Shown here: positions 1 through 34,810 of the stretch, in pieces
Layout: the number at the start of each line of letters is the position of its first letter
Position numbering within the stretch: the first letter of the stretch is position 1
DNA from: Thermoplasmata archaeon
GTDB lineage: Archaea > Thermoplasmatota > Thermoplasmata > Lutacidiplasmatales > UBA184
Assembly (NCBI GenBank): GCA_021817245.1
Contig: JAKAVQ010000001.1
Location: forward strand, 212,265 to 276,264
Length of the DNA stretch: 64,000 bases
Reading direction: 5' to 3'
Notes under the pieces: model-generated
Told to the model about the DNA's origin: nothing
What the model saw: only the letters and a program-made list of their open reading frames with translations
Databases searched by the model: none
Translations under genes and position numbers: made by a program

Positions 1-321
1 GAGTCGGTCCATCCGGGAGTCGAGCCCTTGGCGGGCCGTCCCGAGAAGGTCGATGTCGTGGGAGAGCGTGGAGAGCCGCGCCGAGACGTTCCCGGCCCAC
101 AGATCGAATCGGCGGGTCGTGACCAGGTCAAAGTCCTCGACGATGTGCGGGAACCGGTCCTTGAAGTAGAGACCCAGGTGGCTGACGCCGGCCCGCTCGT
201 ACGCCCGACGCCGGCGGCTGTCCCGCAGTATCCAGGCGACGATCCAAGTGACCGCCGCGGCCAGCGCGACGATCAGGATCGCCACCAGCACCCCGACGAC
301 GACCGTGATGGTGTCGACCAT
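1..321 (-). CDS. membrane-anchored hypothetical protein (N-terminal part; C-terminus lies beyond the window start)
   Basis: Reading the minus strand from ATG at 319-321 gives MVDTITVVVGVLVAILIVALAAAVTWIVAWILRDSRRRRAYERAG..., a clear TM helix followed by a positive-inside stretch. A GGAGGAAC SD-like motif lies just upstream. The + ORF 28..357 is its antisense shadow. Confidence 0.5.
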   Translation of the reverse strand, partial: MVDTITVVVGVLVAILIVALAAAVTWIVAWILRDSRRRRAYERAGVSHLGLYFKDRFPHIVEDFDLVTTRRFDLWAGNVSARLSTLSHDIDLLGTARQGLDSRMDRL

Positions 322-331
322 GGTTCCTCCC

Positions 332-607
332 TCACCTCGCCCCTAGGCCGTACTTGACCTCGAGACGCGAGAGCCGCTTCTGGATCGTCTCGAGTCGGCG
401 GACCGAGGCTCCCCGCCAGCCCTCCAGGTCCGCGATCCGGTCGTGGTGGCGACCGATCTGCTCGTCCAGGGGCCGGATACGCTCCTCGGTCGCGAGCTCG
501 TGCTCGCGGATCAGACGGGGCATCTGCTCGGTGAGATACTGGTCGAGCCGGTGGGTGGGACCGCGGTCCCGGACGTAGGCCCGGGTCCGTTCTCCGATGT
601 TCGGCAT
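332..607 (-). CDS. small coiled-coil hypothetical protein (91 aa)
   Basis: Internal Met of the 332..1123 ORF (MPNIGERTRAYVRDRGPTHRLDQYLTEQ...RLSRLEVKYGLGAR) has non-Arg-biased helical composition. It lies 3 nt downstream of the preceding gene's stop, and the upstream ORF extension is Arg-rich junk. Confidence 0.5.
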   Translation of the reverse strand: MPNIGERTRAYVRDRGPTHRLDQYLTEQMPRLIREHELATEERIRPLDEQIGRHHDRIADLEGWRGASVRRLETIQKRLSRLEVKYGLGAR

Positions 608-21928: not shown

Positions 21929-22120
21929 CTAGGCAAAGAGCCGGCTCAGGAACGCGATCAGCAGGATGGCGATCGCGCCGTAGAGCAGGTAGGTGTACAT
22001 CCGCCGCGTCGCGATCTGCTGGGCCCGCTTCTCCCGACACGCCCGGCTGCAGGTCTCCTCGTCGACCGCGCAGACCCGTCCGCAGACCCGGCAATGTCGG
22101 TGGTCGGTCTCCGAGGGCAT
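21929..22120 (-). CDS. DUF2116-like small Zn-ribbon membrane protein
   Basis: 63 aa. CRVCGRVCAVDEETCSRAC (C-x2-C…C-x3-C) followed by a single TM helix LLYGAIAILLIAFLSRLF. Confidence 0.55.
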   Translation of the reverse strand: MPSETDHRHCRVCGRVCAVDEETCSRACREKRAQQIATRRMYTYLLYGAIAILLIAFLSRLFA

Positions 22121-22176: not shown

Positions 22177-25100
22177 CTAGGTCCGGCGAACGCGGCGACG
22201 CAGATCACGGTCCGACGGATCCGGCCCCAGCGCCGGCGTCGGGTCCATCGGGTTCGGGGGGTCCGATTCGGCAAAGGAGCGGTACGCCGCCGCCGCCCTC
22301 AGCTCCGCGTCGAGCTCGTCGTCGGTCGGGATCGGGGGCGGTGCGGGACGGGAGGGCCGGGCCGCCGGCCGGGGGCCGGCCTTCAGGACATCGTGGGTCT
22401 CTGCCGAGAGCTGCTTCAAGAGGTTCAGCCAGATCCGGCCCTGGTGGGCGATCGTCCCCTCGAGGCGATCGCGCAGGTCGCTCGTCTGCTCGAGGAGCTC
22501 GCCCTCCACGCGGCGGAGCTCACGGACCAGCTCCCGGCGTAGCTCGTTGACGCGCGACTCGGTCTCCTCGGAGGCCGGACCGCGCTTCTCGAGCTCGGCG
22601 ACCTTGAGCCAGGTCTTCCGGACGACGGGGAGGACCCGGTCGCTCAGCACCAGCAGGCGCCGGTCGAGGTCGTCGGCCTCCTGCCGGATCGACCGCTCGA
22701 CCCGCGCGAGGTCGGTCTCGCGCTGCTGCAGCTTCGTCTCGAGCCGCTCGAGCCGAAGGATCGACTCCGCCTGCGCGGCCTTGAGCCGGAGCTCCGCGTC
22801 GGCGAGTCCCGCGGCGACCACCTTCTCCTGGTCGCCCCGGGCCGACTCGAGCGCCCGCGCGACCCGGTCCCTCACCGCGGCATCGAACCGGCTCGAGTCG
22901 ATCGTCTTCGAAAGGGCCTGATCGACGTCGGCCTTGAGCCGCGCGAGCAGCTCGACGTACTTCTCGCGCTCCCGCTCCTGGTTCTCCCTCAGCTTCTGCT
23001 CGAAGAACGCCTGGAGCCGGACCTGGAGGCCCGCGACGGCCGACGAGTTCGCGTCCGCGATCTCCGCGATCCGCGCCTCGCGCTCGGTCTCCGCGCGCTT
23101 CTCGACGTCGTCGATCCGCTCGTCGGCCAGCTGGAGGAAGTGCTCCCGTTGGTCGGCGATCTGCGTGGCGAGACGGCTCTCGAGGTCCTTCGCGCGCCCC
23201 TCGACCAGGATCGCGACCCGTTGCTCGAGCTCGCGGACCTCCCGGACCCTGTGCTGTTCCGCCGCGTCCGACTGGGACTTGAGCAGCTCCCGAACGCGCG
23301 CCTCGAGCTCCTCCCGGACGGCGGTGACCTGTTCCTTCGATTCCGCCACCTCGAGGTCGAGCTGGGCGACGAGGGCGGCCCGCAGCTCCTCCTCGGATCG
23401 GGCGGACCGTGCCTTGATCTCCTCGAGGTTCTGGCGCAGCTCTTCGCGCAGGCGCTGGGCCCAGAGCTCCCCGGTCGACTGCACCGCCTGCCGGACCTTC
23501 TCCGAAAGGTCGGGAAGGGCGGCGTCCAGCGAGGCGCGCAGCCGCTGCTCAAGGTCGGTGGAGAGCGCGGTGACATCGACGGCCGGCCGGGCCTCGAGCG
23601 GGGCGAGGCGCGCGCCGAGATCGGTGCCGAGTCGAAGGATCCCCTGGGCGGACCGGTCCGAGACCTCGCGGAGGCGCGTCTCCATCGTTCCGAGGAGCTT
23701 CGTTTCGAGCATCGCCGGGTCCGGCGGGGCCGGGGAGCGCTCGAGCGCCGCGACACGAGATTCGAGGAGCCGAAGCGCCTCGCCGTCCGGTTCTCGGGCG
23801 GCCGGCGCCAAGGGGCGCGCGGTAGGAAGACCTGTCACCGGGGGGAACGGGCGGTCCGGCTCGGGGGCCGGCGGGGGTGCCACGGAGGCGAGCCCCGTGG
23901 GGCGGATCTCGGGAGGAGGGGCCGAGGGCCGGATCGACGGATCGTCGCTCACGGAGACGGGCACCGAGGCGGACGGCGGGACCCGTACCTCGGTCGGACG
24001 CTGGAGCCACGGCGGCACCGTCGACGCGACCGGGTCGGAGGGGTCGAGGACCGGTGGGGCGGTCGGAGAGAGACGGCTCTCTTCGAGTCGCGGCAGCAGG
24101 ACCGATGGCTGCGCCTGCACGTACTCGTTCGCGCGCTTCGCGGTCTCGCCGCTCATCGGGACCGAGCGACCCTTCGGGCGGCTCAGGAGGATCGCGGCGG
24201 TCTCCATCGCGGTCGCGATCCGCCACATCTCCTTGCGCCGGTCGCGGCCGCCCTGGCGCTCGGGGTCGTGAAGGTGCGTGACGGAGCGGCCGGACTCGAC
24301 CACGTCGACCCGCCGGGCGATCTCGGCGAGCTTCGATTCGAGCCCGTCCCGGGCGTACTGGAGAACGAGCGGCAGCGACTCCCGGGCGCGAGCGGTGGGC
24401 GGGTGGGTGAGGTCGCGGACGCTGACCGGGGCGAGTTCCCAGGACTGGATCCGCTTGGAGTGCCGGTCCCCCTGAGCCTCCCCCTTCGGCACGCGCATCA
24501 GCGCGAGCGTGAGCGGGATCTGCTCGGTGAACTCGTGGGTGTTGACCTTCGCCTCGGGCAGGAAGTAGGGGAAGACGAGGAACGCGCCGAGGGAGAGCAG
24601 GGAGCCGGGCAGGAGCCGCACCATGTCCTGGACGACCTGGTTCCCCGCCTCCCACTGGTCGGCGGCAACGACGACGACCGGATCGCTCGTCCCCCGATGG
24701 AAGAGGAACCCCTCGCCGACGGCCTGGTAGACCGACGGGTCCGGGTCGACGGTCGGGTGGGTCGGCTGCGCGGGCCCGCCCATCGTCGCGTGGGCCCGCA
24801 GCACCGCAGGTCCGAACTCGCCGGTCGCGAGCAGGTCGGCGGTCGCGAAGACGAGCGTCTTCATGCCGAGCCGGGGACGGTCCTCGGTGGAGAGGAACAT
24901 CCGGCCGACGCACGTGTACCGTCCGTTGGCCGCCGGGTACAGGAACAGGTTGGGGTAGAACGAGAGCGGCTGGGCCGGGTCCGGATCCCAGTAATCGTGG
25001 GTGTCGGCGATGTTGATCGTCAGGTTGCCGACGATCCGGATCGCCTCGAGCGTCTCGCGCCGGCCCGGGAACTCCTCGGGGATGGTCGTGTACCCCGGGC

Positions 25101-25185
25101 TCTCGGCCTCGTTGTCGACCTGGCGGCACCAGACGACCGCGACCGGCGAGAGTCCGGCCGCGACCGGCCCGGATCCGAGCGCCAT
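22177..25185 (-). CDS. 1002-aa protein: novel N-terminal globular domain (~330 aa), Pro-rich linker, ~500-aa coiled coil, acidic C-terminal region
   Basis: Start MALGSGPVAAG at 25183-25185, overlapping the TGA of the upstream GTPase gene (ATGA). The N-domain has an alpha/beta-like pattern (…AVVWCRQVDNEAESPGYTTIPEEFPGRRETLEAIRIVGNLTINIADTHDYWDPD…). The linker is PPxP-rich (residues ~500-600). Then comes a long heptad-rich Glu/Arg/Leu/Ala coiled coil. The 5' 176 codons of ORF 22177..25713 overlap the GTPase gene in another frame and were discarded. Confidence 0.7.
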   Translation of the reverse strand: MALGSGPVAAGLSPVAVVWCRQVDNEAESPGYTTIPEEFPGRRETLEAIRIVGNLTINIADTHDYWDPDPAQPLSFYPNLFLYPAANGRYTCVGRMFLSTEDRPRLGMKTLVFATADLLATGEFGPAVLRAHATMGGPAQPTHPTVDPDPSVYQAVGEGFLFHRGTSDPVVVVAADQWEAGNQVVQDMVRLLPGSLLSLGAFLVFPYFLPEAKVNTHEFTEQIPLTLALMRVPKGEAQGDRHSKRIQSWELAPVSVRDLTHPPTARARESLPLVLQYARDGLESKLAEIARRVDVVESGRSVTHLHDPERQGGRDRRKEMWRIATAMETAAILLSRPKGRSVPMSGETAKRANEYVQAQPSVLLPRLEESRLSPTAPPVLDPSDPVASTVPPWLQRPTEVRVPPSASVPVSVSDDPSIRPSAPPPEIRPTGLASVAPPPAPEPDRPFPPVTGLPTARPLAPAAREPDGEALRLLESRVAALERSPAPPDPAMLETKLLGTMETRLREVSDRSAQGILRLGTDLGARLAPLEARPAVDVTALSTDLEQRLRASLDAALPDLSEKVRQAVQSTGELWAQRLREELRQNLEEIKARSARSEEELRAALVAQLDLEVAESKEQVTAVREELEARVRELLKSQSDAAEQHRVREVRELEQRVAILVEGRAKDLESRLATQIADQREHFLQLADERIDDVEKRAETEREARIAEIADANSSAVAGLQVRLQAFFEQKLRENQEREREKYVELLARLKADVDQALSKTIDSSRFDAAVRDRVARALESARGDQEKVVAAGLADAELRLKAAQAESILRLERLETKLQQRETDLARVERSIRQEADDLDRRLLVLSDRVLPVVRKTWLKVAELEKRGPASEETESRVNELRRELVRELRRVEGELLEQTSDLRDRLEGTIAHQGRIWLNLLKQLSAETHDVLKAGPRPAARPSRPAPPPIPTDDELDAELRAAAAYRSFAESDPPNPMDPTPALGPDPSDRDLRRRVRRT

Positions 25186-26357
25186 CAGCTCCCCTTGGTC
25201 GCGCGGCGCTCGAGCACCCGCTCGCAGGCGCGGGCGAGGGGGAGGGTCGTGTTGACCATCACCGGTACCCCCATCGTGGGGGTTCCGACGTTCGGCGACT
25301 CCTCGCCGGTCTCCCCGACGAACATCGGATGGCCCTCCCCGGTCGAGACGGCGCTCGACACGAGGAAGACGTCCTCGCGGACGGATAGGCCACGACCGTC
25401 CTGGGCGACGAGGATCGTCCCCATCCCGGCACCGTCCCGACGGAGGAGGAACTCGACCGGATCGAACGCGCTGTGGTACGTCCGGTCGCGCACCGACTGC
25501 TCGACCTCGGAGTAGAAGTCCTTGAGCTTGTCTGCCTTCGAGATCGCGATCACGAGCGGGAGGTTGCGGCTGCGGACATAGCGGAAGACGCCGCGCGCGA
25601 GGTTGACCTGCTGGGCCTGGTCGCGGAGCGATGGGAGCGCCGGTGAGAGGAGCAGGATGACGGCGTCGGCCCCCTGGACGAACCGTCCCAGCAGGGTGAG
25701 ACCCCGACGCCACAGGTCGCGCCGGTCCGGGCGCCAGGAATCGAAGTGCGGGATCACGCGGCAGGTCTTCTCGCTGACCTCGCCCTCGGGGGAATCGATC
25801 CAGAGCCGGTCGTAGGTGAAGTAATCCGCGATGATCCCGCCGGCCTCGTCGATCGTGCGGAGCTCCATCGGGCGGGACGCCGCTTCGCCGTTCGGCGCCC
25901 CGTAGCGGAAGCGCATCGTCATCTCGACGAACTGGTTGAACTTCGTCGGCAGCGGATACTTCGTCAAGACGCCCTGATCTTCGCGTCCCGCCGCAAGCTC
26001 CACCCAGAGCTTCCGCCGGTCCTCCATCGGACGATTCACGTAGTACCGGGTCGTCGTCTCGAGGCTTCCCTCGGGGTCCGTGGGGTCGGTCGTCTCGTAC
26101 GTCGTCTCCTCGAGGGCGACGTCGTTCTCGAGCTCCCCGTAGAGCGGGAGCGTCCCGTTCTCCGGGCGGGTCGGCACGTAGAGGATCGGCAGGTTGAGGC
26201 CGAAGTGGCCCGAGAGGAAGCGGAAGTAGGTCGTCTTGCCGGACGCGGGGATCCCGACCACGGCGATGCGGGCCGTGTCGAACGACGGCTTCGACTCCCG
26301 TTCGCGTTTGGACCCGGCTCCCCGGCGGGTGCGCGTCGTGACCTTGACCTCGGGCAT
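25185..26357 (-). CDS. divergent Arf/Sar/SRbeta-like small GTPase with insertions and a C-terminal extension (390 aa)
   Basis: G1 VVGIPASGKTTYF (cf. Arf GLDxAGKTT), G3 TIDEAGG (DxxG), G4 ISKADKL ([NT]KxD-like), G5 VSSAVSTG (SAx). There is an ~80-aa insert between G1 and G3, and a ~100-aa Gly/Val-rich tail. Confidence 0.7.
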   Translation of the reverse strand: MPEVKVTTRTRRGAGSKRERESKPSFDTARIAVVGIPASGKTTYFRFLSGHFGLNLPILYVPTRPENGTLPLYGELENDVALEETTYETTDPTDPEGSLETTTRYYVNRPMEDRRKLWVELAAGREDQGVLTKYPLPTKFNQFVEMTMRFRYGAPNGEAASRPMELRTIDEAGGIIADYFTYDRLWIDSPEGEVSEKTCRVIPHFDSWRPDRRDLWRRGLTLLGRFVQGADAVILLLSPALPSLRDQAQQVNLARGVFRYVRSRNLPLVIAISKADKLKDFYSEVEQSVRDRTYHSAFDPVEFLLRRDGAGMGTILVAQDGRGLSVREDVFLVSSAVSTGEGHPMFVGETGEESPNVGTPTMGVPVMVNTTLPLARACERVLERRATKGS

Positions 26358-26376
26358 CGAACGGCCTAGCGCCTCC

Positions 26377-27879
26377 TCACCGCATCTCCGCGAGGCATAT
26401 CTCGATGAAGTCGAGCGCGCCCTCGACGGCGGGCCCGCCGGTCGAGAGCTCGAGGCGCGCGTCCTGCAGGAGGCCGAAGACCTCCTCGACGGCCGACTCG
26501 TGCTTCAGTGCGGCGTCCTGGAGATCGCCCTCCCCGGCGAGGCGGGTGAGCTGGTACGTTCCCCGCAGATCGAGCAGCTTGGCGAAGAGGTCCATGAGTT
26601 GCGTCCGCGCCCCGGCGTTCCCGTTCGCGAGCGCATGCTCGGTCGAGTCGATGAAGCGCACCAGCGTCTCGGTCTCCTTGTCGTTCTGCATCCGGGCCTG
26701 GAGCATCGCGAGCCGGCGGAGGACCGCGCCCTGCGACGGTGACGGGAGCTTCTCCGCTTCGGTCCACGCCTGGAGCAGCGCCCGTGCCGCCTCGACGACG
26801 GCATGGCGGGCGTACTGCACCCGGGCCTCCCAGTACAGTCGTGTCACCGCCGGGAGCACCAGTTGGGCTTTCGCGATGCGGGAGAGCGCAAGGTCGTACT
26901 CCCCCTGGAGGTACGCCTCGACGATCTCGCCGAGCGGACCGTACCGTTCCTTGAGGTACGCGGGAGGGCCGGCCGCGCTCGCGAGCACGCCGACCTCGAG
27001 GTCGGGCGCCTCCGTGTACGCGTTCACGCCGTTCGCCCGGGCCGCGACCTGCGCGCTGCGGATCCGCGCGACCGTCGCGTGCTGCTGCGGCTCTTTCAGC
27101 GCGCGGGCGGCGTTCGCGGCATGCCGAGCGAGCTCTTCGGGATGCATCTCTTCGAGTGCAAGGTCGCTGTCGTACGAGACGTCGATGAACGCATGGACCA
27201 TCTGGGTGAAGAGCGCGGTCCCCGTGGTCACCTCTTGGAATCCGAACGGCGCCGGCAGCCCGAGCGCCTGGGCGCGCGCGGTGAGCTGATCGATCAGCTG
27301 GTTCATCCGGCCGGCGTCGACGCCCTTGTCCCGCTCCGTCCCGTTCCCGATGCCGATCAGGCGCAGCGAGAGCCGGGAGTTCGCGGGGAGCAGGTACGGG
27401 ACGAGATCGACCTTTCCCTCGGGCAACGCGGCCCCGGGCGAAGCCCGGACATCGAAGCGGCCCGAGGCGTTGTCCCATCCGTCCGTCACGAGCACGAGGT
27501 TCCCGCGCACGCCGTCCGTGCCCTGGCGCAACAGGTCGGCGCCGGTCGCGATCGCGTCCCAGATGGCGGAGCGGCCGCTCGGCGTCAGGAGCGAGATGAG
27601 GTTCTCGATGTAGGGGAGGTTCTCCTTGTGGATCTCCCCGAGCGGTACGGGGACCCGGACCACTTCCGTGAACGTCACGAGACCGAAGAGCGCCCCCGAG
27701 TTGGCGGCCTCCTCGAGGATGCGAAAGACGGCGGTCCGGGCGACCTCGACCTTCTGGCGCTCCGGCCGGCTCGTGTCGGGATCCGGTAGCGGCGCGAGCA
27801 TGCTCTTCGAAAGGTCGAGCAGGAGCACATGGCGCTCGCGGGCAGCGGCCGGTACCGAAGCAGGTGCGTCGTTCAACAT
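26377..27879 (-). CDS. von Willebrand factor A (vWA) domain protein with MIDAS motif and C-terminal alpha-helical domain
   Basis: HVLLLDLSKSM (DxSxS), …SGRSAIWDAIATGADLL…, NLVLVTDGWDNAS (T…D of MIDAS). ~300-aa helical C-terminal half. Lies 19 nt upstream of the GTPase gene on the same strand. Confidence 0.8.
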   Translation of the reverse strand: MLNDAPASVPAAARERHVLLLDLSKSMLAPLPDPDTSRPERQKVEVARTAVFRILEEAANSGALFGLVTFTEVVRVPVPLGEIHKENLPYIENLISLLTPSGRSAIWDAIATGADLLRQGTDGVRGNLVLVTDGWDNASGRFDVRASPGAALPEGKVDLVPYLLPANSRLSLRLIGIGNGTERDKGVDAGRMNQLIDQLTARAQALGLPAPFGFQEVTTGTALFTQMVHAFIDVSYDSDLALEEMHPEELARHAANAARALKEPQQHATVARIRSAQVAARANGVNAYTEAPDLEVGVLASAAGPPAYLKERYGPLGEIVEAYLQGEYDLALSRIAKAQLVLPAVTRLYWEARVQYARHAVVEAARALLQAWTEAEKLPSPSQGAVLRRLAMLQARMQNDKETETLVRFIDSTEHALANGNAGARTQLMDLFAKLLDLRGTYQLTRLAGEGDLQDAALKHESAVEEVFGLLQDARLELSTGGPAVEGALDFIEICLAEMR

Positions 27880-28057
27880 CGGATGGTTGCAGGGAATCGG
27901 GAGGACGTCACTGGTTTCCTAGAGCCCCACGGTTCCCCGGTCCGCTCTGCCCATGTGCACGCCGTATTTACCTCGGAGAAGGTATTTGTGGCTTCCGACG
28001 GTTATACGCCGCGGAGGCCCGAAAGGACGCCAAATCCGTTCCGGCGCGGCTCGGGTA

Positions 28058-28068
28058 ACCTTATAGTC
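28058..28068 (+). promoter_or_regulatory. TATA-like box (CCTTATAGTC) ~27 nt upstream of the S17e ATG; leaderless-type promoter
   Basis: AT-rich hexamer in otherwise ~70% GC DNA at archaeal TATA spacing from the start codon; no SD. Confidence 0.4.
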
Positions 28069-28092
28069 CGGACTCGAAGTGGCCCCGCCCGC

Positions 28093-30577: not shown

Positions 30578-31186
30578 ATGGCGAACGCGGCGCTCATCCT
30601 CGCGGCCGGAGCGTCGAGCCGCTTTGGCGGCTCTCCGAAGGCCCTTCTACCGGTCGACGAGCGCACGGCGGTGCGTCGGATTGCGGAAGTGGCGCTCGCC
30701 GAGGGCGCCTCGCCGGTCGTTGTCGTGATCGGGGCGCTCCGAGGTCCGATCGCGCACGAGCTGCGGGGACTGCCAGTTGAGCTGGTCGAGGCGGAGAACT
30801 GGTACGAGGGAAGGACCGCATCGATCCAGGCCGGCGTGCGCGCGCTCCCTGAGGAACACGACCTCCTGTTCTGGCCGGTCGACCACCCTTTCGTGACGGA
30901 ACGCACCGTGGGGACGTTGTTCGCGCTGAAAGAGCGGGACCTCCTTGGGACGTGGTTCATTCCGACGTACCAAGGGCGCGGCGGCCACCCGGTCCTCTGG
31001 CGGGCCTGCGTGCGGACGGCCTTGCTCGAGCTGCGCACCGACGCTCCGGTCCGGTCCCTGTTGCCCGAGCTGGGACCCCAGGTCCGGCGCTTTTCGGTCG
31101 ACGATCCCGGGGTGCTCGAGAACGTCGACGACCCCGAGCAGTTCCGGGCCGCCCACCAAGCGTGGCGTGCTCGCGAGGGGGTCTGA
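30578..31186 (+). CDS. MocA/MobA-like molybdenum-cofactor nucleotidyltransferase (probable MCD synthesis for the Mo-hydroxylase)
   Basis: MANAALILAAGASSRFGGSPKALLPVDERTAV… matches the NTP_transf_3 N-terminal motif (LAAGxSxRxG). ~200 aa. Confidence 0.75.
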   Translation: MANAALILAAGASSRFGGSPKALLPVDERTAVRRIAEVALAEGASPVVVVIGALRGPIAHELRGLPVELVEAENWYEGRTASIQAGVRALPEEHDLLFWPVDHPFVTERTVGTLFALKERDLLGTWFIPTYQGRGGHPVLWRACVRTALLELRTDAPVRSLLPELGPQVRRFSVDDPGVLENVDDPEQFRAAHQAWRAREGV

Positions 31187-31192
31187 CCGCCC

Positions 31193-32038
31193 GTGGATCG
31201 GCGAGAACTGCACGAGGCGCTCCGGCTCGTCGAGGCGCACCGGCCGTTCGTCCGCGCGGTGGTGGTGTCGGCGACGGGCTCCGTGCCGGGGAAGCCGGGG
31301 GCCTCGATGCTGGTGCGCGAGGACGGCTCGGCCATCGGGACGGTCGGCGGGGCCGCGCTCGAGGAGCGGGTCAAGGAGCTGGCCCGAGCCGCGTTCGAGC
31401 AAGGCTCGGGAGGGCTCCATCACTTCGACCTCGCCGCCTGGAGGTCCGGGGGGCTCCCGAGCCTCTGTGGCGGCTCCGTTGAGATCGCGATCGAGTACGT
31501 CGGAGCTCGCCCGCACCTTCTCCTCTGGGGCGGGGGCCACGTGGCACACGCCCTCGCCGCGCTCCTTCCTCCGCTCGAGTACGACTACAGCGTCGCCGAC
31601 GATCGGGAGGATTGGGTCGGCGAGGAACGGTTCCCCTTGGCGGGGCGACGGGCGGTGGTGGCGCCGACAGCGCTGTGGCAGACGTTCGAGCCCGATGAGT
31701 ACACGCACCTCTTCGTCCTCGGCTACGACGCACGCAAGGATCTCGAGGTGCTCGCCGCGTCGATCGAACGATTCCCGGGGGCGATCGGGCTCATCGCGAG
31801 CGCCGCGAAGCGCGAGCACGTGTTCGCGTCGCTCCGGGATCGAGGGTTCTCCCGGGAGTCGATCGACCGCGTCCGATCCCCGGTCGGGATCGGGATCGGG
31901 GCCGAGAGCCCGCCCGAGATCGCCGTGAGCATCGTCGCCGAGCTCGTCGCCGAGCGCCACCCCCCGCGGTTCCGTACTCGAACAGTTGATAGTCGAGCGC
32001 AGCTTCGCGAGCGCGATGGCCAGCCCCGACCGCGTTAG
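31193..32038 (+). CDS. XdhC/CoxI-family Mo-hydroxylase maturation factor
   Basis: GTG start. …RAVVVSATGSVPGKPGASMLV…, LLLWGGGHVAHALAAL…, HLFVLGYDARKDLEVL…, VRSPVGIGIGAESPPEIAVSIVAELVAERH (Rossmann-like XdhC C-terminal domain). The C-terminus overlaps the next gene by ~23 nt. Confidence 0.8.
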   Translation: MDRRELHEALRLVEAHRPFVRAVVVSATGSVPGKPGASMLVREDGSAIGTVGGAALEERVKELARAAFEQGSGGLHHFDLAAWRSGGLPSLCGGSVEIAIEYVGARPHLLLWGGGHVAHALAALLPPLEYDYSVADDREDWVGEERFPLAGRRAVVAPTALWQTFEPDEYTHLFVLGYDARKDLEVLAASIERFPGAIGLIASAAKREHVFASLRDRGFSRESIDRVRSPVGIGIGAESPPEIAVSIVAELVAERHPPRFRTRTVDSRAQLRERDGQPRPR

Positions 32039-32486
32039 CTTCCGGCTGAACGGACAGCCGGTCGAACCGTCCTGCCCACCGGAGCGGATCCTCCTCGATC
32101 TCCTCCGCGAGGAGCTGCGGCTCACCGGGACGAAGCGCGGGTGCGACCTCGGCACCTGCGGCTGCTGCACCGTCCTCGTTGACGGTCGGCCGACCTTGAG
32201 CTGTCTTACCCTCGCGCGCCTCGTCGACGGTCGGTCGGTCGATACGATCGAGGGCCTGTCGCCGGCCCAAGGCCTCTCGCCGGTCCAGCGGTCGTTCGTC
32301 GAGCACGGGGCGACCCAGTGCGGGTTCTGCACGCCCGGGTTCGTCGTGACGGCCACCGCCCTTCTCCGGCGGAACCCGCACCCCTCGCGCGCCGAGATCG
32401 AGGGCGCGATCGCGGGCAATCTCTGCCGGTGCACCGGATACCGGAAGATCGTCGAGGCGATCGAGGCGGCCGCCGGAGGACGCTGA
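32016..32486 (+). CDS. [2Fe-2S]-binding small subunit of a xanthine dehydrogenase/CO dehydrogenase-family molybdoenzyme
   Basis: …GTKRGCDLGTCGCCTVLVDGRP… (plant-ferredoxin-type cluster) and …QCGFCTPGFVV…CRCTGYRKI (second cluster). Confidence 0.9.
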   Translation: MASPDRVSFRLNGQPVEPSCPPERILLDLLREELRLTGTKRGCDLGTCGCCTVLVDGRPTLSCLTLARLVDGRSVDTIEGLSPAQGLSPVQRSFVEHGATQCGFCTPGFVVTATALLRRNPHPSRAEIEGAIAGNLCRCTGYRKIVEAIEAAAGGR

Positions 32487-34810
32487 TGGCGTCGGTGTCG
32501 GAGAGTCCGTACCGGTTGCTCGGCCGGCGGATCCCGTACGTGGAAGGGCCTCTCAAGGTCACCGGCCGGGCCGAGTACACGGACGATCTCCAGCGGCCCG
32601 GCATGCTGGTCGGCCGCCTGTTGCGGAGCCCCTGGCCGCACGCGCGTCTGCGCTCGATCGACGTCACCGCAGCCCGTGCCGTGCCGGGAGTGCACGCCGT
32701 GCTGACGGGCGACCGGTACCCGACCCCGTTCGGGGTCCTCCCGATCACGCACGACGAGACGGCGATCGCGGTCGGCAAGGCCCGCTACATCGGCGACATC
32801 GTCGCCGCCGTCGCGGCGAGCGACGAGCGTACGGCCGAGCGGGCCCTCTCGCTCGTGCGGTTCGACGTCGAGCCCCTGCCGGAGCACTCGGATCCGCGCA
32901 TGGGCGTCTCGAAGGTCGACGAACCGATCCACGCCCGGGGGCTTGCCGGTTCCAACGTCCAGAAGGAGGTCGTGCAGCACTTCGGAGATGTCGATCAGGC
33001 GTTCGCACGGGCCGCGCACTCGGTCCGGGTCCGCGGCACCTTCGCCGGCGTCACTCACGCATTCACCGAACCGATGGCCACGGTTGCGGAGGCGACGCCG
33101 GACGGGCGGCTCACCGTCTATAGCGCGACGCAGGTGCCGCACTACCTCCACCGCGCGCTCTCCGAGGTCCTGGGCCTCCCGATGCACCGGATCCGGGTGA
33201 TCAAACCCGAGGTCGGCGGCGGGTTCGGAGGGAAGTCCGATCCATTGCCCCACGAGATCGTCTGCGCCGCGCTCGCGATCGAGACCGGGCGCCCGGTGAA
33301 GATCCTCTTCGATCGGGAGGACGTCTTCTACACGAACCACGGGCGTCACCCGACCCAGAACGACGTCCGCATCGCGACCGACGCCGACGGAAACCTTCTC
33401 GCCTACGACATCGAAGCGCTGATCGACGGCGGCGCCTGGAGCTCGTTCGGGACCGTCACGACATACTACAACGGCGTCCTCTCCATGGGACCGTACCGCG
33501 TTCCGAACTTCCGGTACCGGGGACGACGCGTCTACACGAATCGGCCGCCGTCCGGCGCGATGCGCGCGCACGGCGGCACGAACATCCGCTACACCATCGA
33601 GGTCGCCCTCGACCGGCTCGCGGAGGAGATCGGGACCGACCCGTTCGACCTCCGCGTGCGGAACGCCCTCCCGCCGGACTCCACGACGATCAACCAGTTC
33701 CGCATCACCTCGAGCTCGTTCCTCGAATGCCTTTCCGCCGTCCGGACCGCGAGCGGATGGGACGAGAAGTTCCGAAAGCTCCCCTACGGCCGCGGCGTCG
33801 GGCTCGGCTGCGGCTTCTACATCTCGGGATCGAACAGCCCAATCCACTTCACGCCGAAGATGCCCCAGTCGACCGTCCATCTGAAGGTCGACATGGACGG
33901 CGGGATCGCGGTGCACTCGATGCAGGCCGACATCGGCCAAGGGTCGAACACGCTCCTCGCGGCGATCGTCGCCGAGGTCCTCGGCGTGGACCTCGATCGG
34001 GTGCACGTCCAGCGCGTCGACTCGGACGTGAGCCCGATCGATCTCGGATCGTACTCGAGCCGCGTGACGTTCATGATGGGCAACGCCGCCCGGCGCGCGG
34101 CCGAGGAGCTGAAGGAGCGCTTGCTCGCCGCCGCCGCCGAGCTGCTCGGACGGCCGGCGGCCTCCCTCAAGGTCGGCCACGAGCGGTTCGAACTCTCGGA
34201 GGACCCGTCGGTCGGCGTGCCGTTCCTCGAAGCCCTCCACCGCGCGATGGAGACGACCGGGGCGCTCACCTCGAGCGGGTCGTACCAGACCGACCCCCGG
34301 GGCGGCGCGTTCAAGGGGGCCAAGGCCGGGACGGCCCCGGCCTATTCGTTCGCGGCGTACGTCGCCGAGGTCGAGGTCGATCATGAGACCGGTGAGTACC
34401 GGGTCGAGAAGGTCTGGGCCGGGTTCGATTGCGGCCGGCCGCTCAACCGCCTGGCGGTCGAGGGCCAGATCGAGGGGTCGATCCACATGGGCCTCGGGCA
34501 GGTGCTCGGCGAGTCGATGAACTACCGGGGGGCCCGCCTGTTCAACCCGTCGCTCCTCGAGTACAAGATCCCGACGCCCCAGCAGATGCCCGAGGTCGAG
34601 ATCCTCCTGGTGGGACGGGACGACCCGGCCGGGCCGTTCGGCGCGAAGGAGGCGGGGGAAGGGCCGCTGATCGCCACGCTCCCGGCCGTGGGCAACGCGC
34701 TGTACGACGCGATCGGCGTGCGGTTCACCGAGCTGCCGATCACTCCGGATCGGGTCCTACGCGGGATCGACCGCCGGCACGCCGAGGGCCGCGGCTGGAA
34801 GGGGAGGTAG
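32486..34810 (+). CDS. molybdopterin-binding large subunit of a xanthine dehydrogenase/aldehyde oxidase/CO-dehydrogenase-family enzyme
   Basis: ATG overlaps the small-subunit TGA (TGATG). 774 aa with Ald_Xan_dh hammerhead and MoCo-binding regions (…AHGGTNIRYT…, …GQGSNTLLAAIVAEVLGV…, …GAKEAGEGPLIATLPAVGNAL…). Confidence 0.9.
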   Translation: MASVSESPYRLLGRRIPYVEGPLKVTGRAEYTDDLQRPGMLVGRLLRSPWPHARLRSIDVTAARAVPGVHAVLTGDRYPTPFGVLPITHDETAIAVGKARYIGDIVAAVAASDERTAERALSLVRFDVEPLPEHSDPRMGVSKVDEPIHARGLAGSNVQKEVVQHFGDVDQAFARAAHSVRVRGTFAGVTHAFTEPMATVAEATPDGRLTVYSATQVPHYLHRALSEVLGLPMHRIRVIKPEVGGGFGGKSDPLPHEIVCAALAIETGRPVKILFDREDVFYTNHGRHPTQNDVRIATDADGNLLAYDIEALIDGGAWSSFGTVTTYYNGVLSMGPYRVPNFRYRGRRVYTNRPPSGAMRAHGGTNIRYTIEVALDRLAEEIGTDPFDLRVRNALPPDSTTINQFRITSSSFLECLSAVRTASGWDEKFRKLPYGRGVGLGCGFYISGSNSPIHFTPKMPQSTVHLKVDMDGGIAVHSMQADIGQGSNTLLAAIVAEVLGVDLDRVHVQRVDSDVSPIDLGSYSSRVTFMMGNAARRAAEELKERLLAAAAELLGRPAASLKVGHERFELSEDPSVGVPFLEALHRAMETTGALTSSGSYQTDPRGGAFKGAKAGTAPAYSFAAYVAEVEVDHETGEYRVEKVWAGFDCGRPLNRLAVEGQIEGSIHMGLGQVLGESMNYRGARLFNPSLLEYKIPTPQQMPEVEILLVGRDDPAGPFGAKEAGEGPLIATLPAVGNALYDAIGVRFTELPITPDRVLRGIDRRHAEGRGWKGR

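Follow-up and report, generated by a model that had tools for sequence, protein, structure and literature searches.

A conserved three-gene operon of Thermoplasmata encodes an orphan Ras-like GTPase, a vWA protein and a giant protein with a predicted longin/DENN-like module

The window, a 64,000-nucleotide stretch of contig JAKAVQ010000001.1 from a Thermoplasmata archaeon, contains three co-directional open reading frames on the minus strand, as originally predicted. They encode a vWA protein, a GTPase and a protein of 1002 residues, referred to here as the giant (Table 1). The vWA and GTPase genes are separated by the expected 19 nt, and a gap of 7–22 nt is found in 73 of the 84 related loci scored. 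The junction between the GTPase and the giant had been described as a 4-nt ATGA overlap. The sequence instead reads ...AGC TGA TGG..., where the ATG of the giant, starting at 25185, shares only its A with the TGA, resulting in a 1-nt overlap. A TGATG or TAATG overlap is kept in 72/86 related loci. Given this conservation and the short vWA-GTPase gap, translational coupling is still the likely reading, and the proposed tight coupling of the operon holds. At 70% GC, long open reading frames are frequent in every frame of this genome. The trio is more than a chance arrangement, since protein-level conservation, order and orientation are maintained in every one of the 80 retrieved genome loci, as far as the contigs reach. 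The three genes are thus conserved together, as the original prediction demanded.

Table 1 Features of the operon and its products. Positions refer to the window.
Feature	Residues	Position	Strand	Basis or remark
Gene 1, vWA protein, 500 aa		26377..27879	-	Pfam VWA_2 E=1.3e-8, intact MIDAS site
vWA domain, N-terminal	about 16-200	27280-27834	-	intact MIDAS site
Conserved helical C-terminal half	about 240-500	26380-27162	-	at least one TPR-like unit
19-nt spacer, vWA stop (TGA) to GTPase ATG		26358..26376	-	starts with GGAGG directly after the stop; sequence read
Gene 2, orphan TRAFAC/Ras-like GTPase, 390 aa		25185..26357	-	GTPase motifs and predicted fold
Basic N-terminal tail	1-28		-	predicted disordered
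G1, G35-I-P-A-S-G-K-T42	35-42	26232-26255	-	
Switch-I-region insertion, about 80 aa	58-135	25953-26186	-	β-rich, nearly invariant
Candidate G2, T138	138		-	
G3, D170-E-A-G-G174	170-174	25836-25850	-	catalytic Gln absent
G4, S273-K-A-D276	273-276	25530-25541	-	
G5, S335-A336	335-336		-	
TGATG stop/start overlap		25183..25187	-	GTPase TGA and giant ATG have one base in common
Gene 3, giant protein		22177-25185	-	
N-terminal module, three predicted parts	1-360	24106..25185	-	
Longin-topology domain, ββαββββαα	14-135	24781-25146	-	predicted
α/β domain	148-262	24400-24744	-	predicted
Helical domain	270-358	24112-24378	-	predicted
Proline-rich linker, predicted disordered	361-500	23686..24105	-	composition; pLDDT <50 past aa 362
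Long charged helical rod	501-940	22366..23685	-	sequence composition; conserved C-terminal segment
Pro-rich acidic C-terminal tail, ends basic R-R-R-V-R-R-T, plus stop codon	941-1002	22177..22365	-	sequence
Possible fourth member, 63-aa DUF2116 protein		21929..22120	-	Pfam DUF2116 E=5e-11

Judged by its sequence, the gene 1 product is a von Willebrand factor A domain protein with a MIDAS site. Its Pfam VWA_2 match scores 35.8 bits against a cutoff of 27. Among 16 orthologues, VWA_2 is detected in all, VWA in 14 and TPR_16 in 2 (E=1.4e-5). The MIDAS residues D22-x-S24-x-S26, S104 and D133 are invariant in this set, confirming the site that had been noticed in the window. Motifs of the C-terminal half are likewise invariant, and the terminal L-[AS]-E-M-R is almost so. 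Inspection of the sequence revealed no transmembrane segment.

The gene 2 product is an orphan, with no sequence relatives detected elsewhere. TRAFAC-class GTPases are recognized by the G1 (GxxxxGK[ST]), G3 (DxxG), G4 ([NT]KxD, responsible for guanine specificity) and G5 (SAx) motifs within an α/β GTPase fold. The motifs of the window protein are invariant in its family and, together with the fold of the AF2 model, place it in the TRAFAC class with a predicted Ras-like fold. A kinase or ATPase fold lacking G4 and G5 had been named as the alternative, but both motifs are present. The model is of moderate quality (pLDDT 70), and the switch-I insertion is poorly modelled; like the model of the giant N-module, it derives from a shallow alignment (22 and 44 sequences in the two cases). 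Residues 1-28 at the N terminus are rich in Lys and Arg, have no hydrophobic face and are predicted with a pLDDT of about 33. The G3 motif lies within T-I-D-E-A-G-G-I-I, which contains neither Trp nor Gln.

The trio had been likened to COPII-type logic, with a Sar1/Arf GTPase, the Sec23/24 vWA trunk and a coiled-coil tether, and could be a true homologue or precursor of this eukaryotic machinery. Arf, Sar and SRβ proteins have a W-D-x-G-G-Q G3 motif with the catalytic Gln, as well as an N-terminal amphipathic helix. In the window GTPase, G3 reads TIDEAGGI instead of WDxGGQ and the amphipathic helix is absent. There is no Pfam Arf match, and MglA, Nog1, aIF5B and many Rabs all score higher than Arf and Sar do. 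The vWA trunk of Sec23 and Sec24 is embedded with zinc-finger, β-barrel, helical and gelsolin-like domains. The gene 1 product has none of these; its Pfam matches are restricted to VWA/VWA_2 and, in two members, TPR, its C-terminal half is helical, and a PDB sequence search gave no match at E<=10. The analogy is thereby reduced to a generic vWA fold, and a true homologue or precursor of COPII is extremely improbable.

Membership of the GTPase in the MglA family was also considered. In MglA, the Asp of DxxG is missing and an intrinsic Arg and Gln are present, and the D-E-A-G-G motif of the window protein is presumably not of this type. No sequence similarity to MglA was found at E<=0.001.

The first 400 residues of the giant match no Pfam family, and neither a DENN nor a longin domain is detectable in the protein by sequence. 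In the AF2 model, the structural neighbours of the head are longins and not tubulin. Longin domains have a β-β-α-β-β-β-α-α fold; the modelled order of secondary structure elements (ββαββββαα) and the similarity to known longins indicate a predicted longin domain, bearing out the original guess. Together with the following α/β and helical parts it would form a DENN-like three-part layout. In the DENN module, a longin/u-DENN domain comes first, then an α/β three-layer domain built around a central 5-stranded sheet, and last a helical d-DENN domain (PMC3521125). Nearly all invariant residues of the N-module fall in the longin β1-β2 loop (W19-C-R-Q-V-D-N-E-A-E-S-P30) and the β4-β5 hairpin (G94-R-M-x-L-S-T-E-x-R-P-R105-x-G-x-K-T), with others in D61-T-x-D-Y-W-D-P68. 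Invariant P30 and G31 are located just before β2, while the invariant residues R21, R95, R103 and R105 lie in neighbouring loops. Longin GAPs carry a conserved GP motif before β2, next to an arginine finger in the catalytic pocket (PMC12290439).

The linker has an overall median identity of only 35% and includes the short conserved motifs V-P-P-W-L-Q-R-P (residues 390-397) and V-S-D-D-P-S (residues 411-416); PPW occurs in 99 and DDPS in 79 of 134 orthologous ORFs. Median identity is 45% for the rod and 58% for its end, which contains L-P-x-x-x-K-T-W at about 851-858 and Q-G-R-I-W-L at 915-920. Residues 559-852, a proline-free stretch of 294 residues rich in E, R, A and L, very probably form a long helical rod. 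The giant had been labelled a coiled coil, but heptad periodicity in residues 501-940 does not exceed that of shuffles in a crude heptad-contrast test (z=1.3). The length of the rod differs between lineages, with the whole giant measuring 950-1250 residues in this lineage and 558-563 in a second one.

Two described systems likewise bring together, in one neighbourhood, a vWA protein, a diverged TRAFAC GTPase and a large protein whose globular head is joined to a coiled-coil or polar tail. FtsZl1-vWA-GTPase is a putative membrane-remodelling system, in which an N-terminal FtsZ/tubulin-like domain with GGGTG(S/T)G is followed by a coiled coil and a helical domain, and the operon includes a vWA protein and a diverged GTPase (Makarova and Koonin 2010, PMC2875224). 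In the DO-GTPase-GAP1 systems, the gene immediately downstream of the GTPase codes for the three-domain GAP1 protein, and vWA and coiled-coil proteins are frequent neighbours (Kaur et al. 2020, PMC7159879). It is possible, though in our estimate unlikely, that the trio is a highly diverged, domesticated relative of such NTPase-partner neighbourhoods. The layout is alike, including the Glu in Walker B/G3 (D170-E171) and a downstream three-subdomain protein with a polar/helical extension (PMC2875224; PMC7159879). The vWA and GTPase neighbours and the long helical region are FtsZl1-type traits, but the giant head lacks the GGGTGxG motif and has longin neighbours instead. Pfam profiles for GAP1-N, GAP1-M, GAP1-C and FtsZ/tubulin gave no match at E<=1-5. 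DO-GTPase2 produces weak matches in 12/44 members of the GTPase family (best E=0.012), but these remain below the cutoff and span no more than 14 residues of the P-loop (profile positions 3-16), whereas membership calls for a DO-GTPase1 or DO-GTPase2 match across the domain. The window operon also lacks the OmpA proteins, kinases, FNIII proteins and effectors. The described systems are mobile and patchy with variable effectors, whereas the trio is fixed in synteny, carries no effector-like domain and is under strong purifying selection, with conservation resembling that of ribosomal proteins.

The trio order is found in every Thermoplasmata locus with sufficient contig, covering at least 123 Lutacidiplasmatales-like species and the second lineage. 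Across the 80 loci, the median identity is 83% for the GTPase, 71-74% for the vWA protein and 72% for the N-module, compared to 87% for L31e, 85% for S17e, 77% for S19e, 68% for aIF6, 61% for M50 and 51% for PPAT. The second lineage is more distant, with identities to the window proteins of 60% for the GTPase, 40% for the vWA protein and about 38% for the N-module. The fixed order and a GTPase identity comparable to L31e and S17e therefore argue for a vertically inherited housekeeping module and not a defence island.

An NTPase-vWA anti-phage or biological-conflict system had also been suggested, as vWA domains are repeatedly found with NTPases and coiled-coil proteins in such systems (PMC7159879). 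PADLOC gave weak matches to PtuA (E=0.014, P-loop) and ZorA (E=0.008, helical rod), but no significant match for the trio, and no nuclease, protease, TIR or pore-former effector domain was found. A single syntenic position amid housekeeping genes across at least 123 species and a GTPase as conserved as ribosomal proteins are the opposite of patchy, fast-evolving defence islands. This reading is already largely refuted by conservation and synteny, and we consider it very improbable.

The neighbourhood suggests another role. In this lineage, the operon adjoins the genes for S17e, aIF6, L31e and S19e in 59-67 of the 80 loci, which would fit a ribosome- or translation-associated GTPase system, such as a lineage-specific assembly or quality-control factor. 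The basic tail of the GTPase and the housekeeping-level conservation are compatible with this role, and the vWA-MIDAS protein could work on ribosomal particles in the manner of midasin and its MIDAS domain. However, the ribosomal genes are absent upstream in the second lineage, where CDC48, a methyltransferase, an MBL-fold protein and a divergently transcribed NOG1 are found, while the downstream link to DUF2116, PPAT and the M50 peptidase is retained. We also know of no ribosome-assembly GTPase with a longin/DENN-like partner or a long helical stalk. A ribosomal function thus appears quite unlikely.

The DUF2116 protein, composed of a treble-clef zinc ribbon and a hydrophobic C-terminal helix, is a possible member of the system based on its position. 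Its gene starts 56 nt after that of the giant, and in the second lineage (L081-L086) it follows the giant homologue by 4-8 nt.

On balance, and with modest confidence, we favour the interpretation of the trio as a lineage-specific, vertically inherited GTPase switch module of soil and peat Thermoplasmata (Lutacidiplasmatales-like and one sister lineage), which supports the candidate undescribed GTPase-regulated system of the original prediction. The trio would be made as one transcript and probably assemble into one complex. The 390-residue protein would be a guanine-specific TRAFAC/Ras-like GTPase without the catalytic glutamine after DxxG. The giant would serve as its cognate regulator, with the longin domain placed within the DENN-like module; this fold and that of the GTPase are both AF2 predictions. 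One face of the longin domain, bearing the invariant WCRQVDNEAESP loop together with the Arg-rich GRMxLSTExRPR hairpin, may meet the nucleotide pocket and provide GAP (arginine-finger) or GEF activity. The helical stalk probably dimerizes the giant, which would create the usual two-longin platform. The vWA protein would bind a partner through the MIDAS metal site and its TPR-like C-terminal half. The MIDAS site may capture an acidic motif, one candidate being the conserved DDPS of the giant linker, and membrane tethering of the assembly may fall to the DUF2116 zinc-ribbon/TM protein. Membrane or cell-shape organization, division and positioning can be named as candidate processes; the data favour none in particular.

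Longin-type folds, from MglB to Ragulator, folliculin, C9orf72-SMCR8 and DENN proteins, bind small GTPases and act as GAPs or GEFs. MglA-MglB is a prokaryotic example, with a Ras-like GTPase and its Roadblock-domain GAP encoded in one operon. Compared to this pair, the window GTPase is larger (390 residues with the switch-I insertion of about 80), the partner has a predicted longin and not roadblock topology, two more subdomains and about 640 residues of linker and helical rod, and the operon includes a vWA protein. Binding of small GTPases to roadblock/longin dimers follows a conserved orientation (PMC10933270).

An Asgard operon combines a Rab-like GTPase with a LAMTOR1-like Roadblock protein and a DENN-domain protein, and FLCN/NPRL2-like longins are also present in Asgard archaea (Liu et al., bioRxiv 10.1101/2020.10.19.343400). 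In contrast, the window operon belongs to Thermoplasmata, its GTPase is of an orphan family and not Rab-like, a vWA protein replaces the Roadblock protein, and the regulator bears a long helical stalk with a DENN/longin module that is not detectable by sequence.

The predicted longin, α/β and helical layout resembles that of C9orf72-SMCR8, FLCN-FNIP, GATOR1 NPRL2-NPRL3 and DENN Rab-GEFs. The most conserved motif of the window family lies in the β1-β2 loop, where longin GAPs have GP (C9orf72 also WD) motifs, and invariant arginines are found 65-75 residues downstream. In SMCR8, 78 residues separate the GP motif (G68-P69) from the arginine finger (R147) (PMC12290439). However, there is no sequence homology to the eukaryotic longin GAPs, the motif is P-G and not G-P, and the spacing differs. 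The eukaryotic GAPs are heterodimers, whereas the window regulator, with its putative GAP/GEF role, would be a homodimer formed via the stalk.

Small GTPases with roadblock/longin regulators form the core of how eukaryotic membrane traffic and nutrient signalling work. To our knowledge, Asgard archaea and eukaryotes are the only groups to which longin regulators of the DENN and FLCN/NPRL2 types have been traced. A bolder reading, which we consider doubtful, is that non-Asgard Thermoplasmata possess a real longin-DENN-type regulator on a helical tether of an estimated tens of nm, with its own Ras-superfamily GTPase and MIDAS-vWA/TPR adaptor, constituting a housekeeping eukaryote-like membrane- or cell-organizing machine. 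If true, the longin-DENN/GTPase partnership would be older and wider in Archaea, or have been invented twice. If the prediction holds, longin/DENN-GTPase modules extend past Asgard, a compact three-protein system becomes available for expression and reconstitution, and an essential-looking, undescribed cell-biological process of Thermoplasmatota is flagged for study. Even if the fold assignment fails, the locus represents an undescribed, strongly conserved GTPase operon, whose hosts are an abundant group of uncultured soil and peat Thermoplasmata.

The three genes named in the original prediction are real genes on the minus strand, despite the ORF-rich background of the window, where a G+C content of about 70% throughout produces long ORFs in every frame. 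They form one tightly packed array, and its stop/start overlap is conserved. As predicted, a spacer of 19 nt, which starts with GGAGG, separates the vWA stop from the next ATG; of 84 scored loci, 73 have a gap of 7–22 nt at this place. The second junction does not have the predicted ATGA overlap. It reads AGC-TGA-TGG, a 1-nt overlap (TGATG), because the downstream ATG and the TGA stop have only the A in common. The stop-start overlap (TGATG or TAATG) is kept in 72/86 loci. No transmembrane segment is predicted in the vWA protein, the GTPase or the giant protein. Three antisense or overlapping ORFs of 445–1279 aa have Arg/Gly/Pro-rich, low-complexity translations and are artefacts typical of 70% GC coding sequence, not genes.

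Features of the array and its surroundings (window coordinates unless a locus of the second lineage, L081 or L084, is named)
Feature	Position	Strand	Remark
vWA protein, 500 aa	26377-27879	-	ORF
GTPase (P-loop protein), 390 aa	25185-26357	-	ORF
GTPase switch-I-region insertion, aa 58-135	25953-26186	-	contains DVALEETTYETTDPTDPEGSLETTTRYYVNRPMEDRRKLWVEL
Giant protein, 1002 aa	22177-25185	-	ORF
N-module part 1, aa 16-133			β-β-α-β-β-β-β-α-α, longin topology (AF2)
N-module part 2, aa 150-260			α/β domain (AF2)
N-module part 3, aa 273-357			helical domain (AF2)
Pro-rich linker, aa 361-500	23686-24105	-	pLDDT <50 beyond residue 362
DUF2116 protein, 63 aa	21929-22120	-	treble-clef zinc ribbon, then hydrophobic helix
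DUF2116 gene, L081	9673-9861		second lineage
DUF2116 gene, L084	9695-9886		second lineage
Small ORF upstream of vWA, L081	5091-5237		second lineage
Small ORF upstream of vWA, L084	4850-5089		second lineage
vWA-S17e intergenic region, 213 nt	27880-28092		divergent
S17e start codon	28093	+	ATG
TATA-like box ACTATAAGG	~28058-28066		
TATA-like box GTATAAC	~28000-28006		
TATA-like box GGTAAATAC	~27963-27971		
Antisense/overlapping ORF	23140-25515	+	artefact
Antisense/overlapping ORF	22934-24271	+	artefact
Antisense/overlapping ORF	30647-34486	-	artefact

The order vWA, GTPase, giant is kept in each of the 80 loci as far as the contig reaches, which bears out the proposed gene neighbourhood. A collection of 5.8 billion proteins contains 354 close relatives of the GTPase, the organism-labelled ones all from 'Thermoplasmata archaeon' MAGs. 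When a single genome was scanned for each GTDB species, the GTPase turned up in at least 123 stretches. The best 80 of these are nearly all titled Thermoplasmata, with one from Candidatus Lutacidiplasmatales, acid-soil archaea whose GC content of about 69% (PMC9287336) matches that of the window. The same trio is carried by a second, more distant Thermoplasmata lineage, with identities of 37–40% in the N-domain, 60% in the GTPase and 40% in the vWA protein. There the genes upstream of the trio are unlike those in the window, while the downstream order is shared: DUF2116, a CTP_transf_like cytidylyltransferase (named PPAT by inference), a small ORF (DUF5611 in the window) and an M50 peptidase.

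The trio is conserved at housekeeping level. Over the best 80 of at least 123 species loci, median identities to the window protein are 83% for the GTPase, 74% for the vWA domain, 71% for the vWA C-terminal half and 72% for the first ~360 residues of the giant protein (N-module), with 35% for its linker and 45% for its rod. The neighboring genes give 87% (L31e), 85% (S17e), 77% (S19e), 68% (aIF6), 61% (M50 peptidase) and 51% (PPAT). Being on par with L31e, S17e and S19e, the module is vertically inherited, and purifying selection acts on it as strongly as on ribosomal proteins. This is the reverse of the defence-island pattern and, together with the lack of any significant PADLOC match, makes the conflict system that had been offered as an alternative very improbable. 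Truncated or split genes, with ORFs down to 137 aa, occur at L063, L074 and several other orthologous loci, and at some loci the GTPase or N-module aligns only partially; the truncated and split orthologues are probably MAG assembly frameshifts, not real pseudogenes.

In the GTPase, the motifs G1 (G35-IPASGKT42), G3 (D170-EAGG174), G4 (S273-KAD276) and G5 (S335-A336) are complete and invariant among 44 sequences from both lineages, and T138, directly before strand β2, is a plausible G2. The motifs directly mark a P-loop GTPase, predicted to be guanine-specific; since a Gly follows DxxG, it lacks the catalytic glutamine. In Pfam, in NCBIfam and in profile searches of PDB sequences, nothing passed threshold, and the matches were confined to the P-loop and the NKxD region of Der, FeoB and EF-Tu. 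We set aside AAA_18, ATP_bind_1, GTP_EFTU, Der and small_GTP as P-loop or NKxD fragments, and dropped a DO-GTPase2 lead whose matches were limited to the P-loop. Run exhaustively against 1.84 billion cluster representatives, phmmer found no distant relatives: 13 of its 15 matches are members or fragments of the family itself, and the borderline proteins P0163 and P0165 are spurious, being Ig-like repetitive surface proteins. By sequence, the GTPase is therefore an orphan family.

The AF2 model of the GTPase shows a Ras-like core (pLDDT 70, pTM 0.77), a basic N-terminal tail predicted to be disordered, and, in the switch-I region, a β-rich insertion of ~80 residues. The insertion, near-invariant between species and rich in Thr, Glu, Asp and Pro, is poorly modelled (pLDDT 40–74). 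Among the structures compared, the model scores highest against MglA (10.9), Nog1 (10.8), aIF5B (10.5), EngA (10.4) and Cin4 (10.2), followed by many Rab/Ras proteins (about 10), Arl13B (9.6), LokiRagO and Arf1 (both 9.5), a Hodarchaeal ArfR (9.3), Sar1 (9.2) and SRβ (8.8). NCBI labels family members hypothetical or 'GTPase domain-containing protein'. In the family (P0166, P0169, P0171), JGI auto-annotation gives some members the name 'signal recognition particle receptor subunit beta' and others 'GTPase SAR1 family protein', names unsupported by our tests.

Residues 1-360 of the giant protein match no Pfam family or PDB sequence. Their conservation is strong, and the blocks W19-CRQVDNEAESP30, D61-TxDYWDP68 and G94-RMxLSTExRPRxGxKT110 are invariant. 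A confident AF2 model of residues 1-400 (pLDDT 81, pTM 0.82) has three parts. The original prediction had asked whether this domain is longin, roadblock or GRIP-like, and the modelled fold points to longin. In a Foldseek search against the PDB, the sole match at E≤0.001 is C9orf72, from its complex with SMCR8, WDR41 and ARF1; next in the ranking come TagF, the Lst4 longin domain, a Lokiarchaeal Roadblock-Longin protein and GATOR1. Sec24c at rank 32 (E=1.2) was discounted as noise. Structural comparison (both values in brackets) gave Loki Roadblock-Longin (8.3; 108), C9orf72 (7.5; 110), NPRL2 and Npr2 (7.3; 118 and 103), LokiRagO, presumably matched in its roadblock domain (7.0; 88), DENND10 (6.9; 176), FNIP2 (6.8; 120), DENND1A (6.7; 170), FLCN (6.4; 101), MglC (5.9; 86) and TagF (5.8; 176). 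A DENN-like, longin-led module is predicted directly after the GTPase. A literature search for a TagF-DENN link matched only author names ('Dennis'). A metagenome scan with the N-module alignment returned only further members of the same lineage (68–82% identity) and no new architecture.

The invariant residues of the N-module lie almost all in the longin β1-β2 loop and β4-β5 hairpin. Eukaryotic and Asgard longin GAPs have a conserved GP motif just before β2, beside the arginine finger of the catalytic pocket; C9orf72 has a WD motif at the same place, and in SMCR8 78 residues separate the GP motif from the arginine finger that follows it (PMC12290439). In the N-module, an invariant P30-G31 precedes β2, and the invariant R95, R103 and R105 follow 65–75 residues downstream, a resemblance and a lead.

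The giant protein is 950–1250 aa long in the window's lineage vs 558–563 aa in the second lineage, its main variable being rod length. The coiled coil is putative: the composition of the charged rod, without proline over 294 residues, fits a helical rod, but heptad periodicity is not significant (z=1.3), so the term continues to rest on composition. The conserved C-terminal segment (LPxxxKTW ... QGRIWL) and the Pro-rich, acidic tail complete the protein; weak Pfam matches to Syntaxin, COG5_N, COG6_N and SKA2 in the tails of a few orthologues were taken as helical or coiled-coil noise. In the otherwise poorly conserved linker, the motifs V-P-P-W-L-Q-R-P and V-S-D-D-P-S-(L-L) are conserved: of 134 orthologous ORFs, 99 contain PPW and 79 contain DDPS. 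Both motifs resemble docking peptides, and an acidic one might serve as a MIDAS ligand.

When the three proteins were scanned with Pfam, NCBIfam and PADLOC, the vWA domain alone passed threshold; VWA_2 is present in 16/16 orthologues tested. The MIDAS site is intact as predicted, with D22, S24, S26, S104 and D133 invariant among orthologues. The last 260 residues, which are conserved, have a helical character, match TPR_16 in two of the 16 orthologues (E=1.4e-5) and end in a near-invariant L-[AS]-E-M-R. The protein has no PDB sequence match and no Sec23/24-specific domain. The suggested likeness to the Sec23/24 trunk is thus not supported, and a true COPII-type homologue is scarcely credible.

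Roadblock/longin domains serve as GAPs or GEFs for small GTPases, to which they bind in a conserved orientation and mostly as dimers (PMC3521125; PMC10933270). We lean slightly towards a GTPase switch with the giant protein as its cognate, longin-led regulator on a stalk, a vWA/TPR adaptor and a candidate DUF2116 anchor. A GAP donating an arginine would be attractive, since the GTPase lacks the glutamine and the conserved N-module loops are Arg-rich; a GEF is equally possible. The invariant WCRQVDNEAESP loop on the longin face and one of R21, R95, R103 and R105 would be placed at the nucleotide pocket, while the stalk would dimerise the giant protein, giving a two-longin platform and reach. 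The vWA/TPR protein may connect the switch with a partner by its MIDAS site contacting an acidic motif, one candidate ligand being the linker DDPS.

The layout is like that of the FtsZl1-vWA-GTPase and DO-GTPase-GAP1 neighbourhoods, but all membership tests were negative, and we consider it unlikely that the operon is a distant relative of either that has become domesticated. The regulator model has precedents: in MglA-MglB, a small GTPase and its roadblock/longin regulator are already linked in the genome, and an Asgard operon encoding a LAMTOR1-like protein, a Rab-like GTPase and a DENN protein, the one exception to DENN being described as eukaryote-only, follows the same linkage logic (bioRxiv 10.1101/2020.10.19.343400). 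The novel features are an orphan GTPase family that has an insertion at switch I, a long rod fused to the predicted longin/DENN-like head, a MIDAS-vWA/TPR protein as obligatory partner, conservation like that of ribosomal proteins, and the host group, Thermoplasmata instead of Asgard.

The DUF2116 gene lies directly 3' of the giant gene in both lineages, at 56 nt in the window and 4–8 nt in the second lineage. From its position, the protein, whose hydrophobic helix is YLLYGAIAILLIAFL in the window, could be the membrane anchor of the system or merely a conserved neighbor.

Just upstream of the vWA gene, the second lineage has a 48–79-aa ORF that overlaps the vWA start and has no Pfam match; the window's intergenic region leaves no space for a counterpart. 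S17e and the vWA operon diverge from this region, which holds the sole AT-rich, TATA-like boxes nearby.
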